From IMG/VR virus record IMGVR_UViG_3300017911_002159, positions 32,001 to 96,000 of that record: a stretch of 64,000 bases of DNA; one strand, 5' to 3'. Shown here one piece after another: positions 878 to 50,266 of this stretch. The DNA is from a virus. Taxonomy: Duplodnaviria; Caudoviricetes. Below the pieces are notes generated by a model. That model worked only from the letters and a program-made list of their open reading frames with translations. It ran no database searches and was not told the origin of the DNA. Every line of letters starts with the position of its first letter. Position 1 is the stretch's first letter. Made by a program: the position numbers and the translations under genes.

Positions 878-3800
878 ATGTCAGATATCAATACCAATCT
901 TAATAGATCCCCATACTTTGACGATTTTTTAGAGAACAAGAAGTTCTACAGAATTCTTTTTAAGCCGGGTTCTGCTGTGCAAGCAAGAGAGCTTTCTCAG
1001 CTTCAAACTATTTTGCAGAAGCAGATTAATAGATTTGGCTCTCACGTTTTTAAAAACGGGTCTATTGTTGATGGTGTAAATCCAAAGGTAATTGATCAAG
1101 CACATGTTGTAAGATTGAAAAATGCTTTTTCTAACAACACTGTTGTAGATCTTGATGCCATCCTTAATTCTTCTAACAACTTAATTTTAACATCTCAGTC
1201 TAGTGACGTAGAAGCTAAGATTCTCTTTCAGCAAGACGGATCTCAAGCAGATACGCCCAATACAAAAAGGTTGTATGTTGTATATACAAACGTAGATGAT
1301 ACAAATACAAAAACAGCAGTTGGTAATGTATCTATCGTAGAAAACTCCAATACTGTAACAGGTACTGGCACTTCGTTTAACAACTATGCAGTTGGCGATT
1401 ACTTTACCATATTTGAAACTCCTAACAAAAGAAGAGTTTCTTTTCAAGCCAAGATTGACAATATTGCCAACAATACATCCCTTACATTAAACAGAAAGCT
1501 GTCCTTTGCTAACAGCAGTGTGAGTTCAAACAACTTTACTATTCATAGAAACTTAACAAAGTTCGGTGTTCTCGGTACTGCGGACTCCCCCGAAATTTTG
1601 GAGGTTGTTGACAGAACTGTAAGAAATTCACAAGCCAATTCTGTAAACACTTCTGTTTCTGCAAACACCTTCCTCTTAGGTTTCTCTGTAGCAAATACAG
1701 AAACTTTGAGAGTTACAGTTAACGGTCAGGAGCAAACACCGACTGTTGATTACACTCCTAACACCACTCACGTAGTGTTAAAGTACAATCTTCAAAACAG
1801 TGACGAAATTACATTTATTGAAGCACTTAATACTGTTAAGTATACTGGTCTTCAATGTTTCAAATCTGGATCTGTAGCCACTTCTGAGAGAGCCACTGTA
1901 GTTTCTAATCAGGAAGGCGTTATTTTCCATAAAGGCCAATTCTTAAATATTGATCCCGGATTTGTTGTAGTATCTGATAATGTTGAGGGAGCTAATGATT
2001 CTATTGTTGCCGTGGATTCAAATGAATCTATTGTTACCTTTAAGGCAGATCCATCACTTCTCGACAATGCTGCAGGATTTTCTAACGAGGTTGCACCGGG
2101 AGCAGATAGACTTAAGTTAGATCCTCTTTTAGTATCTGCTAACACATCTAATCTTATTAATAAAGAAGCAGTTGCTGTTCTCGTAAACTTCAATGACGAA
2201 GGTGAAGTTCTATCCGAGAATAGAGAACCACAGTACAATATTCTTGGTGATCAACTTGCCAAGAGAAATACAGACCATGCTGGTAGCTTTACTGTAAAGA
2301 GATTTACAGTTGACACAGAAGCTGCTTCTGCAAACAATGAAAACTTCAAGATTGTTGTAGAACCCGGATTAGGTTACATCAACGGCTACAAAGTAGAGAC
2401 TTTGGCTCCTATCTCCGAAACAATTACCAGAGGAACCAACACTCTTCAAAGAGAAGATTTTGAACTTGGTATTAATTATGGCAACTATGTAAGAGTAAAA
2501 GAATTTAATGGCAACTTTGCTCCTTATGATAGAGTTACCTTTGTTCACAATGGAGCTAATCAGGGATACTTCCCAGCTTCTAACACCACATTCTTAACAA
2601 GTCTTTCTAGCTTTACTCCTGCTTCCTCGAACAACGTAGGTAGAGCTTATGTAAAGTCAGTAGAATTGGAGTCCGGTACTCCGGGTGCTCCAAATGCTAT
2701 CTACAGAATTCACCTGTTTGGTATCGAGCAGTCAGCCAATGATTCGATCTTAAATGCAAGAACCATTGTTACCAACGATACTGTAAAGGGTGGTGCAGAC
2801 ATCATTCTTAATGACAGTGACAATGCTGTTATTACTGAGATTGGAGAGCTTCCTCTCGATGCCTTTGGTGAGGCTGGTGTAAGATCTTACACGGACTCTA
2901 CAAGCACTTTTGACAATAACTTTACTGTAAGAAAGTTTGCTTCTGTGACTGACACTTTAAATGCCAATGGTTTCTTAATTGTTGACGTTGACGATGAAAC
3001 CGATCTTTCTGGTAATAATGCAATTGGTACATATACGACTTCAGAAGTAAACGATCTTGTACTTTCAAACGTAGGCAGTGAGATTTCTTGTAACTCCCTT
3101 GGAGTAACTACATCCTCTGGTAACGTGATTACTTTGTCTTCTGCATTTGGCGACAAAATTCATGTTGGCGATATTGTGCAGATTGACTCTGGCAATAAAG
3201 TTATTGTTACAAAGGTAAATTCTACTACAGAGATTCAAACAAATATTGATAGTACTGATACTACCGGTACACTTAAGAAGATTATACCTGTAGGTAAGAC
3301 TATTCCTGTGGACTCGGACATGGTGTCTACTAGTCAAGTAGATAACACTTTAGTAATCAATATTCCAATTCTGAATAACAGTAACTATACTGGTTCTACT
3401 ACCGTGAGAGCAACTTACGAGTTTAACGGTAGAGATTACAAGCCGTTCAACAAAGACGTAAAGAAAAATCTCTATAGAAGAATCAACACTGCTAACAACT
3501 CTGCCAACTCGATTGGCCCTTGGGATTTAGGTGTGGTTGATGTTCATAAGGTAACTGGTGTTTGGGTTCTTACAAATAAGAACAACGGTAACGCCAACGA
3601 CACGTTTACCGACTCTGATCTAACGGCTACCACTAACAGAGTTAATGGCGGATTCTTTGAATTTGATTCTGGTCAGCGTGATCATTTCTATGATTATTCT
3701 ACCCTTCACCTGACCAATAAAGGTAGATTTAAAAACTATGTTACTTCTAACAACACCATTGTTGTTAAGTTAGACGCCTTTACATTAGACAACAATGATG

Positions 3801-31706: not shown

Positions 31707-32190
31707 ATTTACTAATTCTAAAATTACAGAGATTCAGGAAGAAGATTCACAACCTAATGCCGTAGATATTCGTCTCGATGAGGTAAAACGAATTGATTCT
31801 TCGGTTTTCAGCTTAGACGAAGATGGTGGAAAGACACACCGTATTCTGACTGATATGCCTGTTCAGGATGATGGTTACTTTGTTCTTCCGCCCGGTTCAT
31901 ATCAAGTACAAATGAAGAATCAAATCACTGTTGGTGAAAATGAATCTGGCGTTGTGATCAGTAGATCAACTTTGATTCGAAATGGTATATATTTGGTTTC
32001 TGGCCTGTATGATACAGGATACGAAGGTCCAATGGTTGCTCTTTTGGTTGTCACTGCTGGGGCAGCTAAAATTCAGAAAGGGGCCAGAGTTGGACAGTAT
32101 CTGATTTTAGAGTCTGAAGGTATTGGAACTTACATGGGTTCATATGGAAATGTAAAAATTAATATTAGTGAGGAAAAAAATGAAGACTGA
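31684..32190 (+). CDS. dCTP deaminase / trimeric dUTPase-fold protein
   Basis: QPNAVDIRL; SRSTL.RNG; YD.GYEG; GARVGQ. Start moved to ATG 31684. Confidence 0.75.
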   Translation: MLLHPKSEFTNSKITEIQEEDSQPNAVDIRLDEVKRIDSSVFSLDEDGGKTHRILTDMPVQDDGYFVLPPGSYQVQMKNQITVGENESGVVISRSTLIRNGIYLVSGLYDTGYEGPMVALLVVTAGAAKIQKGARVGQYLILESEGIGTYMGSYGNVKINISEEKNED

Positions 32191-45881: not shown

Positions 45882-46679
45882 ATGGCTACTACAATATCTG
45901 GATCTACTGGAATAAACACGCAGGACATTGTATCCGATGATGCTATTACTGCCAATGGTACTATTACGGCTAACAACTTAGTTGTTGATGATGGCGGCGG
46001 TGTTGGTCCTACGGTAGACATTAAAGGCGGCGGAACGTCTACAGATGCTCCAGCAGATAATGAGCAAACATTATACTTAAGAACAAGAAACGGTACAGTA
46101 GGTCTTTCTACTGGTATTGGTTTCTGGGGTACTTTTGAAACTGGTTCTGATACAAACGCCAGAAGAGCCGCCGATATGAGAGCTGGGTTCAACAATGGAG
46201 ACGGTGCTTGGGGCAATGAGTACATGACCTTCAACGTTGGTATCAACGATGGAGCTAATACCAACGATTCTGCAGCAATGACGACAGAACGTCTTAGAAT
46301 TACTAAGACGGCTATAACAGCAAACGTTGATATTGAAGATACAGTAGGTAATGTAAGAACACCTCGGTATACACAACTAACTGGAGCCTCAAACACCAAT
46401 CTTACCAATGAAGGTGTTTACGTGGTAGATGGTTCCTCGACATTTTCTCAAATAATTATCGGTACAGGTGCAACCCTAACTGCTGGCACCATTATGACAA
46501 TTTATAATAACAGATCAACATCAGTAACTATCTCTAGAGGATCAATCCCTAACATGAGAAAAGCTGCAGATGGTGACTACACTAACTATGCTACACTCAC
46601 ATTAGGTAGAAACTCTGTTACGACAGTTACGATGTTTTTTAATGGCTTGATTGTCCTTACTGGTACGGATATTACATAA
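45882..46679 (+). CDS. Fibre-like structural protein
   Basis: MATTISGSTGI; TERLRIT; D..G.VR motifs; AATAAATA upstream. Confidence 0.6.
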   Translation: MATTISGSTGINTQDIVSDDAITANGTITANNLVVDDGGGVGPTVDIKGGGTSTDAPADNEQTLYLRTRNGTVGLSTGIGFWGTFETGSDTNARRAADMRAGFNNGDGAWGNEYMTFNVGINDGANTNDSAAMTTERLRITKTAITANVDIEDTVGNVRTPRYTQLTGASNTNLTNEGVYVVDGSSTFSQIIIGTGATLTAGTIMTIYNNRSTSVTISRGSIPNMRKAADGDYTNYATLTLGRNSVTTVTMFFNGLIVLTGTDIT

Positions 46680-47383
46680 TGAGTTCTATTCTTCTTGCTG
46701 CTACTAATGTATTCGGCGGTGGTGCAGTGACATCTTTCACTCACGTTGCTGCTTCATACGAGAGAACTACAGGCTCTACAACAACAAAAACATTTACACC
46801 TCCTGCAGGTGCACAGTCTGGCGATCTTCTGATATTGGCATCCTTTGTAGATGACGGAGCTCGTACAATATCAACACCGCCTTCTGGTTGGACTGAGATT
46901 GGCAATAATACTTCTGGGAGCGAGTACCCAGAGGGATATTCTTATTATCAGATTTACAATGGTACAGATTCGTCGTGGACAGCAACATGGTCTGGGGCCG
47001 AACACAGTGCGGGTGTCGTAGTAGCCTTTAGGCCAGACAATGCAATCACGACAGTAACAACAGAACAATTCCAAGAGTCTGATGGCCCATCATCTCTATC
47101 TGATACGATTAGCTCTGTGACTGATACAAATGCTCCGGGTGGTAGAATCTATATGTATTTCCTTCTTGGAAGACCATTGAGTTCTTCAATTCAAAATCCT
47201 ACACCTTCATTCTCTCCAAGCTCTGGTTGGACACACGTAGACGGTGATCCTCTGTTTGCAGACGACTATATGGACTATGCTTATAAGTTAGATTCTGCTG
47301 GTGATTCATTTGTATCCACGACCATCAGTACTAATGATACGGGCCGACAGGCACAACACTTTTTCATTGTAAATGCAGTATAA
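46679..47383 (+). CDS. Putative adhesin/fibre-tip protein
   Basis: P.G.Q.GDLLI; TPPSGWT; Ser/Thr-rich; coupled to the preceding gene. Confidence 0.5.
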   Translation: MSSILLAATNVFGGGAVTSFTHVAASYERTTGSTTTKTFTPPAGAQSGDLLILASFVDDGARTISTPPSGWTEIGNNTSGSEYPEGYSYYQIYNGTDSSWTATWSGAEHSAGVVVAFRPDNAITTVTTEQFQESDGPSSLSDTISSVTDTNAPGGRIYMYFLLGRPLSSSIQNPTPSFSPSSGWTHVDGDPLFADDYMDYAYKLDSAGDSFVSTTISTNDTGRQAQHFFIVNAV

Positions 47384-47403
47384 CTTTATCCTAAGGAAAT
47401 TAA

Positions 47404-47814
47404 ATGTTTGGCTTGATACAGAGGATAGGATTCCTCGCTTTTTTATTAGTCCCTTCTTTTGCTCAGGCCGAAGAGATTCAGCCTGAGTTTTTTATTCATG
47501 ACTTAACAAATGCTACAGCATTGTTTAAAGCAGCAGACATGGGATGTGGAACCGTAGATGAAGATGTTTACAAATTTTTAATCAGAGGTTCTGCTGACTA
47601 TCTGATGGAGACTGGTGCCTCAAGAATTCTTGCTGCACAGATGTTAAATGCTTTGGCAATTGAAATTGTTCAAAGTACAGAAAGATACATTAATTATCAC
47701 GGTTGTGATAAATTTAACTCAGTTATGTTTGAGTTCAAAGACGATTACAAGATACTTAATGACGTTTTTGAAATATATAACATTTCGTTTGACAGTGAAG
47801 AAATACAGTTGTAA
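47404..47814 (+). CDS. Exported protein with a signal peptide
   Basis: Hydrophobic N-terminus ending in AQA. Confidence 0.55.
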   Translation: MFGLIQRIGFLAFLLVPSFAQAEEIQPEFFIHDLTNATALFKAADMGCGTVDEDVYKFLIRGSADYLMETGASRILAAQMLNALAIEIVQSTERYINYHGCDKFNSVMFEFKDDYKILNDVFEIYNISFDSEEIQL

Positions 47815-47821
47815 ATAAATA

Positions 47822-48076
47822 GTTGTGTTCTTGTTGAGGATTCGACAAAAGCTATGCAGGACAGGAGTGCAAATCTCCTCACCTCCACCACAAGCATATT
47901 AAGGTATGTTTCTGATGGGGGTGACTTAGGATCGACTGGTAGTAAGTAGCTTATCTGAGAGAGCAAAAAAAATAGTTGCTAATAACTATGACAAACCTTC
48001 CGTAGCTCTTGCAGCATAACGGGTTGGGCTTGATTCGGGGAGCCTAGAAACAGAAGGGGGATAACTTATCCCCCAC
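47822..48076 (+). ncRNA. ssrA: Circularly permuted (two-piece) tmRNA
   Basis: The acceptor piece has a T-arm AGGAG/TGCAAAT/CTCCT and ends CACCTCC-A-CCA (47890). A 26-nt spacer follows. The coding piece starts GGGGGTG (47917), giving G3-U70. Tag reading frame 47978-48019 = ANNYDKPSVALAA*. Outer boundaries are approximate. Confidence 0.9.
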
Positions 48077-48126
48077 TCGATCTTCTCTTCCATAAATAGT
48101 AAGATAATTTTTTTTAGGAGGTAATA

Positions 48127-48774
48127 ATGAAAAAACTTCTTTTAGGGATGACTGCTTTGGTTGCAGTTTCCTCTACTGCTATGGCTCAAGAGGCGGCTGC
48201 TCCTGCACCTTCTCTGACCAATGCTTATGTCGGTGTTTCGACAAGCCTTGAAGGTACTGCTGACTGGACTCTGGGTTCGGAAATCAACCTTTCTGGTCTG
48301 AATGGTTACGGTGAACTCAAGTACAAGGACCGTGTTGATGCTGCTGGTGACCCTGCAGACGACTATGTTGTTACTCTGGGTTCCAAGCTTTCTGTAGCTG
48401 GTCTGGGTCTGAAGACTGGTGTTAGCTACGAATGGGGTTCCACTTCCGGTGCTGATCTTATCGGTCGTGGTGACGGTAACACTTGGGGTGACCTGACTTC
48501 TAACACAGAATTCTCTGTTTCTCCCGGTGTCATCGGTGGCGAGTTTGTCTGGCTTGGTGCTACGATGAATCTTGCTTCTGATGGTGAGATCGATCTTGGC
48601 TGGGGCGGTGCAAACTACGGCTTTGGCTACAAGCATGACCTCAACGAAAGAGCTTCAATTTCTGCAAGCTACGGTTGGAATGTATCTGTTGTTGACGATG
48701 GTGACGATGCTACTGTAAATGATTGGGTAACTGAATCTACTGGTCTGAAACTTGGTGTAGGGTTCAAGTTCTAA
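48127..48774 (+). CDS. Outer-membrane beta-barrel (porin-like) protein
   Basis: Signal peptide MKKLLL...AMA; alternating beta strands; C-terminal LGVGFKF beta-signal; CATAAATA and AGGAGG upstream. Confidence 0.75.
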   Translation: MKKLLLGMTALVAVSSTAMAQEAAAPAPSLTNAYVGVSTSLEGTADWTLGSEINLSGLNGYGELKYKDRVDAAGDPADDYVVTLGSKLSVAGLGLKTGVSYEWGSTSGADLIGRGDGNTWGDLTSNTEFSVSPGVIGGEFVWLGATMNLASDGEIDLGWGGANYGFGYKHDLNERASISASYGWNVSVVDDGDDATVNDWVTESTGLKLGVGFKF

Positions 48775-48776
48775 AA

Positions 48777-49121
48777 ATGAAATATGCTTTGTTTGGCCTG
48801 TTGGCCGTGACTTTATCCGGTTGTGTAGTCACTTCTCGTAATTCTGAGGGTGACTACACTTCTCTCTCTATCCTCTCTGATAACCTTATTAGAGGTGATA
48901 TCTGTAACACCTTCTCTTTGACTGAAGAGCATGCTCTTTTGCATGAGTTGGATAATGAGGATGGTGAAATTCAAATCAAAGAAAGTCTTATAGAAAAATA
49001 CGGTCGATTAGCAGTCATTGATTGCTATGGTAAGATCGTTGACTTCCATAACTCTAGATCGATGCATGTGATTCAAGAGATGAAGGAAGTGCAAGACTTA
49101 TCGGAAGTCACTCCACTTTAA
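48777..49121 (+). CDS. Lipoprotein
   Basis: Lipobox LSG-C after a short hydrophobic leader. Confidence 0.6.
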   Translation: MKYALFGLLAVTLSGCVVTSRNSEGDYTSLSILSDNLIRGDICNTFSLTEEHALLHELDNEDGEIQIKESLIEKYGRLAVIDCYGKIVDFHNSRSMHVIQEMKEVQDLSEVTPL

Positions 49122-49174
49122 TTCCTAAATAGTAGCAGAAGAAATTTTGCTACTATTTTTTTTTGGAGTTTTAA

Positions 49175-50266
49175 ATGGCACAGAAAGGTGTTTTAGGCGG
49201 TCTTAGACTCGTAAAAATGGGAAGTCAGTGGGCGCAGCCTACTGGTATGTATGACGCCGGTGTTAGAAACAACGGTATTTTCCCAGCAGACCCAGATCCT
49301 GCAGCAAATGCAGGTAAATCTATCGATTGGTTAGACTACGAATCTTTCCTAGACCCAATCACAGGTAAAAGAATTTCTAGAAAAGAGGCATACGAGCAAG
49401 AACTTCTTGCTTTTGGTGATGGTCTTTATGTAGATCAGAAAACCAAAACAGCATTAGATCTTTTTTCCAAGTCAGATGTTTTTAAGAAAAGATTTACTTT
49501 CACCACAAGATGGGGTGTAAGACCAACAATCACGAACATCTTGGCTGGCGGTATCGATGATTCGTATCATGCAACTGGCGAAGCCGTTGATATTCAGCAT
49601 AACTTCGGAACAAATCTTTCTGGAGAAGCAACCAAAGATCTTCAGGATGTTATTATTCAAGCTCTTGCTTCTGGTTTCAGAGGTATCGGCTTCGGCCCTA
49701 CCCAATTCCATTTTGACACCAGACCCGGAAGAGGTGGTTTTTTAGGTTACGTATATCAAAACTGGCCAAAGAAGATCACTCCTATGTTCGTGATGCAGTC
49801 TATTTTAAGAGATAGAATTGCAGACGTAGAACTTTCTGAAGATGAAATTAAACGAATTGCTAGAGATACACCTTTAACAGATACTGATTCTGGCCGTTCT
49901 GGTAAGAGTAAAGCACAGATGTCAGAGGCAGACATCGAAAAATACATTAAACCGCTTTATGGTAAAGAAACAGAAGTTGTTAGAGTAAACACTGTAGGCA
50001 GAGATGTGGCTGTGATCTCTGTTGTTTTAGGTGTTCTTTTTGCCGGTATCTACGGTGCTCAAAGATTTTTTAGATCGAGAGCAAAAAAGAAAGAGACACA
50101 AAGACTCTTGCAAGATAGAAAAAGAAGAGTTATTATTTCTAAATTCAGAAATGAAAACAAAAGGGCAATTGCTAAAGCAAAGAATGATCCTGAACTTGCT
50201 GCACAGTTAGAGGATCAGCTTAAGTCTCAGTTTGCCCTTTATGACGTACCTTTTGAAGAACAATAA
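49175..50266 (+). CDS. Peptidase M15-like (Zn DD-peptidase fold) protein with a C-terminal TM helix
   Basis: SYHATGEAVDI and GIG...FHFDTR; TM VAVISVVLGVLFAGIYGA followed by a basic stretch. Confidence 0.7.
   Translation: MAQKGVLGGLRLVKMGSQWAQPTGMYDAGVRNNGIFPADPDPAANAGKSIDWLDYESFLDPITGKRISRKEAYEQELLAFGDGLYVDQKTKTALDLFSKSDVFKKRFTFTTRWGVRPTITNILAGGIDDSYHATGEAVDIQHNFGTNLSGEATKDLQDVIIQALASGFRGIGFGPTQFHFDTRPGRGGFLGYVYQNWPKKITPMFVMQSILRDRIADVELSEDEIKRIARDTPLTDTDSGRSGKSKAQMSEADIEKYIKPLYGKETEVVRVNTVGRDVAVISVVLGVLFAGIYGAQRFFRSRAKKKETQRLLQDRKRRVIISKFRNENKRAIAKAKNDPELAAQLEDQLKSQFALYDVPFEEQ

Follow-up and report, generated by a model that had tools for sequence, protein, structure and literature searches.

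Two-piece tmRNAs of bacteria and phages

The cellular, Caulobacter-type transfer-messenger RNA (tmRNA; Rfam RF01849; Keiler, Shapiro and Williams 2000, as cited in PMC9004378) is encoded by a permuted gene, in which an acceptor piece is followed by a spacer and then by a coding piece. Phages may carry such genes as well: Buchholz et al. 2022 (PMC9004378) described a two-piece ssrA gene in Methylophilales phage Melnitz and noted one in Pelagibacter phage Mosig, both T4-like marine myoviruses (Kyanoviridae), and SsrA features are annotated in GenBank for the two phages. The same study covered 18,146 phage genomes, of which 402 had tmRNAs; 53 of the 133 unique tmRNAs were two-piece molecules. Permuted tmRNAs were reported in 17 of 47 Melnitz-like contigs, where they are common but not defining. 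Here we analyze a 64,000-nt stretch (the window; positions 32,001 to 96,000 of the IMG/VR virus record IMGVR_UViG_3300017911_002159), which contains, at 47833-48080 on the plus strand, a circularly permuted, alpha-type, two-piece tmRNA gene. We put at roughly 80% the probability that this is a functional phage-encoded tmRNA gene of the alphaproteobacterial type in an uncultured T4-like myovirus. The initial annotation of the locus, made from the sequence alone, implied that such a gene was a novelty; this is not warranted, phage two-piece ssrA genes being both published and annotated in GenBank. The gene adds a trimmed-down example to those already described. It is a well-supported addition to the ribosome-rescue RNAs encoded by marine T4-like phages, and it leaves the current understanding of tmRNA and phage biology unchanged.

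The resemblance to Melnitz and Mosig is close in several respects. The tmRNA is in all three cases phage-encoded, permuted and of the alpha type, and the major head proteins of Melnitz and Mosig are 63-66% identical to that of the phage studied here. The Mosig SsrA obtains 93.6 and 67.6 bits with the Rfam models RF04321 and RF01849, nearly the same as the 92.1 and 62 bits obtained here. In Melnitz, as in the present phage, a TATAAATA promoter motif stands at -66 with TTGACA upstream, and no phage smpB gene is reported or found in any of the three. The differences concern genomic position, sequence and architecture. In Melnitz and Mosig, ssrA is flanked by gp33 and a PD-(D/E)XK nuclease gene, whereas here the neighbors are different and the gp33-like gene is ~65 kb away: the tmRNA gene thus occupies more than one genomic position in T4-like phages. 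At the DNA level, the tmRNA is 75% identical to that of Mosig over 60 nt only (a blastn search of INPHARED returned weak partial hits). Finally, unlike its two counterparts, the RNA described here lacks pseudoknot 1, contains a hairpin inserted in the 3' pseudoknot and carries a different tag.

Identification and anatomy of the tmRNA gene

Two Rfam covariance models recognize the locus over their full length: RF04321 (tmRNA_permuted) at 47838-48019, with 92.1 bits (E 1.8e-16, gathering cut-off 47), and RF01849 (alpha_tmRNA) at 47785-48066, with 62 bits (E 1.2e-14, gathering cut-off 50). Such matches are far above what chance would produce. Within the Rfam clan, the alpha model wins. This is the sole RNA gene found by Rfam in the window, and its scores place it in the circularly permuted two-piece form. 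The permuted order can be read directly, since CCA ends at 47890 and GGGGGUG begins at 47917, and no competing protein-coding frame explains the region. The proposal of a phage-encoded permuted two-piece tmRNA whose tag ends in LAA is therefore borne out, both models scoring above their cut-offs and phage genes lying on both sides; the search with the alpha_tmRNA model, which the initial annotation had put forward as a check, is among the positive results. The elements of the gene are as follows.

47833-47890, plus strand: acceptor piece, with a conserved GUUGAGG start (Rfam alignment, unconstrained fold)
47838-47841 and 47851-47859, plus strand: 5' strands of helix 2 (Rfam alignment)
47863-47879, plus strand: T arm, 5 bp with a 7-nt loop (Rfam alignment, unconstrained fold)
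47880-47886, plus strand: acceptor 3' strand CACCUCC (Rfam alignment, fold)
47887-47890, plus strand: discriminator A and encoded CCA (sequence)
47891-47916, plus strand: intervening segment of 26 nt with an 8-bp hairpin (fold, -4.6 kcal/mol), presumed to be removed on precursor cleavage
47917-47956, plus strand: start of the coding piece (sequence, Rfam alignment, fold)
47917-47923, plus strand: acceptor 5' strand GGGGGUG (DNA GGGGGTG), forming 7 pairs with CACCUCC
G47919-U47884, plus strand: G3-U70 pair (fold)
47929-47936, plus strand: conserved GGAUCGAC element, read as GGATCGAC (sequence)
47936-47943 and 47953-47956, plus strand: 3' strands of helix 2 (Rfam alignment)
47957-47977, plus strand: A-rich single-stranded linker without pseudoknot 1, ending in the AAUAGUU resume context
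47978-48019, plus strand: tag frame GCU...GCA GCA UAA, encoding ANNYDKPSVALAA (codons 47978-48016) followed by a stop (TAA, 48017-48019)
48025-48080, plus strand: 3' pseudoknot, made of S1, S2, AACAGAA and an inserted hairpin
48025-48029 with 48042-48046, plus strand: helix S1
48035-48039 with 48076-48080, plus strand: helix S2 (UCGGG/CUCGA), which contains a pair covarying in the clade
48049-48055, plus strand: conserved AACAGAA
48056-48074, plus strand: inserted 19-nt hairpin, within the 3' pseudoknot
48091-48098, plus strand: CATAAATA, the late-promoter motif of the next gene, 28 nt upstream of its ATG (48127), marking the downstream boundary of the tmRNA unit

The T arm, the acceptor stem and the spacer hairpin are all recovered by an unconstrained fold. 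Sequence reading and folding likewise confirmed the individual elements that had been named beforehand, i.e. the T arm, CACCTCC-A-CCA, the 26-nt spacer, the 7-bp acceptor stem, the G3-U70 pair, UAGUU-GCU and the tag, each at the position given for it. The span of 47822-48076 originally proposed for the gene needs correction at its end: the conserved unit reaches 48080-48081, as supported by the blastn match to two related loci (L336 and L337), which stops at 48081. A first reading of the 3' pseudoknot, in which GGGGA paired with UCCCC (48069-73), was dropped because in two relatives (L346 and L347) the substitutions in the 5' strand are not compensated, whereas UCGGG/CUCGA covaries.

ARAGORN behaved differently. 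Run at default settings or with -m, -ps or -ps90, it made no call on the phage tmRNA; with -ps80, it read the correct tag but mis-assigned the domains, drawing a non-permuted gene that incorporates unrelated downstream sequence. At default settings, it also misses 10 of the 13 clade relatives that were fetched, and the close relatives that it does call are permuted tmRNAs with the same tag frame. We therefore reject the default failure as a disproof and regard it as a limitation of the tool, the Rfam and comparative data being clear: the ARAGORN check suggested at the outset would have failed wrongly. As ARAGORN misses most of this clade, published phage tmRNA counts that are based on it underestimate the true number.

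Conservation and covariation among viral homologs

A pattern describing the permuted junction retrieved at least 119 IMG/VR contigs, and a covariation alignment was built with 53 viral homologs from among the matches listed. Note that part of the acceptor stem and GGAUCGAC were fixed by the retrieval pattern, so that their invariance carries no weight. In this alignment, 94% of the cells pair, compared to 73% after shuffling and 39-51% in slid registers, and 227 double-sided changes are observed. Pairing is complete (100%) in both the T arm and the acceptor stem; compensatory changes affect each of the 5 T-arm pairs and, in the acceptor stem, pairs 5 and 6. The acceptor stem has G-U at pair 3 in 53/53 homologs, a count partly imposed by the pattern. 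In helix 2 the paired fraction is 86%, and 7 of the 8 pairs show compensatory changes. The spacer varies in sequence and in length (10 to ~100 nt) between invariant flanks.

Closer relatives were obtained with a DNA pattern covering the resume context and the tag, which matched two viral and eleven metagenome contigs. Compensatory changes are also seen within this clade: the outer pair of helix 2 is U-A here and C-G in four relatives, pair 4 of the T arm is A-U here and G-C elsewhere, and one S2 pair takes three forms, G-U in the phage studied here, A-U in L346 and L347, G-C in L336 and L337. No relative departs from the frame, length or stop of the tag, its few substitutions being synonymous or conservative; the tags read by ARAGORN at default settings are ANNYKRPSVALAA in L337 and ANNYDKPSLALAA in L344 and L348. 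The gene order is also kept: in at least eight independent contigs from different samples, a homolog of the 47404-47814 gene is followed by the tmRNA and then by homologs of the genes at 48127-48774, 48777-49121 and 49175-50266. In L336 and L337, the more distant of these contigs, the tmRNA DNA is ~85% identical to that of the phage over 47809-48081, against only 33-42% for the flanking proteins. The flanking proteins of the other syntenic contigs range from 33% to 99% identity. The shared neighbors, the higher identity of the tmRNA compared to its flanks and the compensatory changes together identify the tmRNA as a selected phage gene and not as host carry-over. Its identity, structure, conservation and placement in phage DNA are established.

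When homologs of two flanking genes were fetched by protein from IMG/VR, none of the 49 loci had an adjoining tmRNA. These loci suggested that the tmRNA might be a unique insertion, an idea overturned by the syntenic relatives that the tag-based DNA pattern uncovered. The many contigs that have the downstream gene but not the tmRNA indicate that the latter is dispensable for related phages, in agreement with the statement that permuted tmRNAs are common but not defining in Melnitz-like phages (PMC9004378).

Three observations were made on other members of the family. In five loci (L340, L345, L344, L348 and L342), the tag is ANNYDKPSLALAA and the 3' pseudoknot is nearly base-for-base identical to that of the phage gene, with a different tRNA-like domain (acceptor GGGGAUG, GGAUCGAU) and a longer pre-resume region; this pattern suggests that related phages have recombined tmRNA modules. 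In L338 (6640-7090) and L341 (1-423), the spacer between CCA and GGGG is ~100 nt long, compared to 26 nt here, and contains a long inverted repeat, showing that the spacer tolerates large insertions. Finally, L339 (Ga0070746_10045049) has the same coding piece and tag and the acceptor 5' strand GGGCCAG, and no acceptor piece in the ~190 nt that precede it; a broken gene or a very long spacer might account for this.

A reduced architecture

The general plan of the RNA is that of alphaproteobacterial tmRNAs, with which it shares the G3-U70 pair, the GGAUCGAC element, helix 2, the A-rich resume context, a tag ending in ALAA followed by a stop, and a 3' pseudoknot containing AACAGAA. It is nonetheless reduced, with no pseudoknot 1 and a short helix 2, and its 3' pseudoknot contains an extra hairpin. 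GGATCGAC and the resume codon are 41 nt apart, compared to a median of 61 nt (interquartile range 57-65) in 60 unique viral tmRNAs sampled and to 61-66 nt in 20 parsed alphaproteobacterial tmRNAs. Helix 2 is shortened, its middle segment being deleted in the Rfam alignment, and 21 A-rich nt remain between it and the resume codon. This short pre-resume form is common to the clade members L336, L337, L338, L343, L346 and L347. We found no conserved hairpin substituting for pseudoknot 1, the candidate stems differing among clade members. At the other end of the RNA, the 3' strand of S2 begins 0-1 nt after AACAGRA in 76 of 87 sampled viral homologs with a clear S2, whereas here it (CUCGA) begins ~20 nt after AACAGAA, behind the 19-nt hairpin. 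The start of the tag also deviates from the cellular type: it is ANNY in the clade, as opposed to ANDN in 19 and ANEN in one of the 20 sampled alphaproteobacterial tags that could be parsed.

Such a reduced form is compatible with function. According to a review (PMC3968760), pseudoknot 1 is required for tagging in Escherichia coli and can be replaced by a small stable hairpin, and tagging remains efficient in two-piece tmRNAs that have few pseudoknots. E. coli tmRNA variants that lack pseudoknot 1 (Tanner 2006; Wower 2009; both as summarized in PMC3968760) likewise have no pseudoknot between helix 2 and the resume codon; however, these variants are one-piece laboratory constructs with a stable replacement hairpin, whereas the phage RNA is a natural two-piece molecule without a conserved one. 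The loss of pseudoknot 1 in the clade is thus a natural counterpart to the laboratory constructs with which the requirements of tmRNA have been probed.

The promoter region

Two promoter elements lie upstream of the acceptor piece:

47789-47794, plus strand: TTGACA, a hexamer resembling the sigma-70 -35 box (sequence), invariant in all seven close clade members
47814-47821, plus strand: AATAAATA, a motif of the T4 late-promoter type (NATAAATA), at -66 from the acceptor 3' strand

The position of the second element is typical of the family: NATAAATA occurs at -71 to -54 in 61 of 111 sampled viral loci (52 of the 98 unique ones), the chance expectation being ~0.01 per locus, and in none of 22 bacterial loci. 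The promoter is of a phage type that distinguishes the gene from its alphaproteobacterial counterparts. The contig contains 41 NATAAATA sites, 31 of which lie within 100 nt upstream of gene starts on the same strand, and the motif precedes the sheath, major head and tail-fiber genes. This distribution fits promoters of the T4 late type.

The initial annotation regarded AATAAATA as a late promoter. The family-typical position and the enrichment of the motif before structural genes agree with this view but do not prove late-only expression, given the conserved upstream TTGACA, which was missing from that annotation. In 35 of 55 promoters examined, including that of Melnitz, TTGACA or TTGACT lies exactly 17 nt upstream of the TATAAATA motif. 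The seven close clade members, among which the present phage, keep TTGACA with a more variable spacing. At the corresponding spacing from TTGACA, the -10 hexamer of this phage is only TAAATA (3 of 6 matches), and a sigma-70 scan called no promoter on the tmRNA strand. We read these features as a promoter family that would be built for both the host polymerase and the phage-modified polymerase, and whose host-type half appears weakened in this phage. Expression may accordingly be early plus late; the authors who described Melnitz called its tmRNA promoter early (PMC9004378). Over half of the sampled viral permuted tmRNAs thus have a promoter at a fixed distance that combines a host-type -35 box with a T4 late motif, which bears on the timing of the RNA.

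Nine other IMG/VR loci (L016, L046, L051, L067, L083, L084, L089, L092 and L110) have host-type and late-type elements in tandem: a separate TATAAT-type -10 box stands just before TATAAATA or overlaps it, and TTTACA or TTGACC is often found 17 nt before that box.

Proposed function and alternative explanations

The sequence allows a pathway to be proposed in which processing, charging, tagging, timing and benefit are all predictions. A single precursor would be transcribed from the promoter that joins AATAAATA (47814-47821) and the remnant host-type -35 box TTGACA (47789-47794). By analogy with Caulobacter, the 26-nt spacer (47891-47916) would be excised, yielding a ~55-nt acceptor piece with a CCA end and a ~165-nt coding piece, which the 7-bp acceptor stem and the short helix 2 would hold together. 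The host alanyl-tRNA synthetase would charge the molecule with alanine through recognition of G3-U70, and host SmpB and EF-Tu would deliver it to stalled ribosomes. Translation would then restart at GCU 47978 and append (A)ANNYDKPSVALAA, the LAA end of which would serve as a ClpXP degradation signal. The probable benefit for the phage would be to keep ribosomes free and to recycle truncated proteins after the shutdown of host transcription and mRNA. A role in countering host defenses, raised in the initial annotation, is speculative.

Several points weigh against a functional tmRNA gene. The RF04321 score of 92 bits is at the low end of the scores of cellular alphaproteobacterial tmRNAs (mostly 120-170 bits, a range that includes one score from genome G042), a difference that results from the structural reductions. 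Pseudoknot 1 is missing, with no conserved replacement hairpin evident. The downstream gene has homologs in 43 contigs that lack a tmRNA. Lastly, the contig, with a completeness of 66%, yielded neither an smpB nor an SspB gene, so that function must rely on host SmpB; the initial remark that the window contains no smpB was correct and extends to the whole 119-kb contig.

The first three of these points also enter into the alternatives. Thus, the RNA could be a tmRNA mimic that redirects or blocks host protein quality control, either as a decoy binding host SmpB, EF-Tu or alanyl-tRNA synthetase or by tagging proteins with a peptide that escapes host SspB. The missing pseudoknot 1, the short helix 2, the low Rfam score and the ANNY tag start, where all 20 parsed alphaproteobacterial tags have ANDN or ANEN, would all suit such a role. 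However, all the elements required for normal function are intact and conserved: G3-U70, CCA and GGAUCGAC, as well as the canonical resume context and the open tag frame with its ALAA end and stop. A pure decoy has no need for a conserved tag frame, two-piece tmRNAs tag efficiently even when they have few pseudoknots, and a small stable hairpin can stand in for pseudoknot 1 in E. coli (PMC3968760); we consider a mimic quite unlikely. Alternatively, a host ssrA gene acquired by recombination or by imprecise excision of a temperate element might now be drifting without function. tmRNA genes are common integration sites and fragments of them occur in prophages (PMC9004378), the gene is missing from many related contigs, and it has suffered deletions relative to the cellular forms. 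Yet it is full length and has its own promoter, features that also led us to reject the idea of an attP fragment; it remains ~85% identical between phages whose flanking proteins are 33-42% identical; its pairs change in a compensatory manner and its tag frame is never broken; a search of 401 sampled alphaproteobacterial genomes found no close cellular source; and T4-like phages are lytic (no integrase search was made in this contig). A decaying passenger is thus highly improbable.

The contig being a metagenome assembly, a bacterial ssrA fragment might also have been mis-joined to viral sequence. The same gene order in at least eight independently assembled contigs from different samples, the phage-type promoters on both sides of the tmRNA and the continuous GC content across the region make a chimera or host contamination extremely improbable. 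The conserved synteny, the compensatory changes and the retention of tag length, frame and stop thus argue jointly against a passenger, an attachment-site fragment and an assembly artifact, and we favor a functional phage tmRNA that takes part in ribosome rescue. A bolder version of this interpretation is that a minimal tmRNA, in two pieces and devoid of both pseudoknot 1 and the ANDN start, evolved to take over rescue on the phage's terms: tagged proteins might bypass the SspB adaptor of the host, or rescue might go on despite the cleavage of mRNA, tRNA or the host tmRNA by a host defense. This scenario is unlikely on the present evidence; if true, the clade would provide a natural test case for the minimum that a working tmRNA needs.

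Host

An alphaproteobacterial host had been deduced from the type of the RNA. This is not established: Melnitz has an alpha-type ssrA and a methylophilic, non-alphaproteobacterial host (PMC9004378), and an alpha-type RNA therefore does not fix the host. Compared by blastn with the 401 sampled alphaproteobacterial genomes, the tmRNA has a best match of only 74% identity over 83 nt, so that similarity did not assign a host, and the relatives identified through the head protein infect gammaproteobacteria, OM43, SAR11 and cyanobacteria. A scan of genome contigs with a T-loop pattern was unspecific, returning mostly one-piece tmRNAs from many phyla, and gave no host information.

The phage contig and the surroundings of the gene

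The source contig is a 119,120-bp IMG/VR virus record (CheckV completeness 66%) assembled from a metagenome. The carrier of the gene is an uncultured T4-like myovirus: the window encodes a large terminase, a tail sheath, a portal, a gp23-type major head protein, a helicase and tail-fiber proteins. The major head protein shares 70.7% identity with its counterpart in Stenotrophomonas phage DLP6, 65.5% with that of Melnitz and ~63% with those of Mosig and cyanomyoviruses. One tmRNA copy was found in the contig. It sits between genes of the tail-fiber region and a gene for a secreted protein, and phage families, e.g. a gp47-like exonuclease, extend downstream for 35 kb to the end of the record. 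The gp33-like late coactivator encoded elsewhere in the contig was recognized through phrog_254 (E 1.1e-11); gp55 was not located among the few open reading frames looked at. The immediate neighbors of the tmRNA, at 45882-47814 and 48127-50266, have no match in Pfam or PHROGs, and 7.5 kb around the locus gave no blastn match to the INPHARED phages.

The 3' region of the Melnitz ssrA contains a glutamine riboswitch, of which the window has no Rfam hit. Rfam elements were seen near the tmRNA in two other phage sequences: a glutamine riboswitch ~3.3 kb downstream in the viral contig L088 (L088:5432-5534) and a manA RNA motif ~3 kb downstream of the Mosig SsrA (L121:7384-7591).

Four tRNA genes are present in the contig (Arg-TCT, Thr-TGT, Leu-TAA and Met-CAT), at genome coordinates 1388-3535 and 99845-100453, i.e. 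outside or at the edge of the window. Immediately downstream of the tmRNA, segment 48091-48774 consists of the CATAAATA motif and a strong ribosome-binding site followed by the gene of a 215-residue protein (48127-48774) with a signal peptide; this protein has no Pfam or PHROGs match and has homologs at 51-60% identity in 43 IMG/VR contigs.

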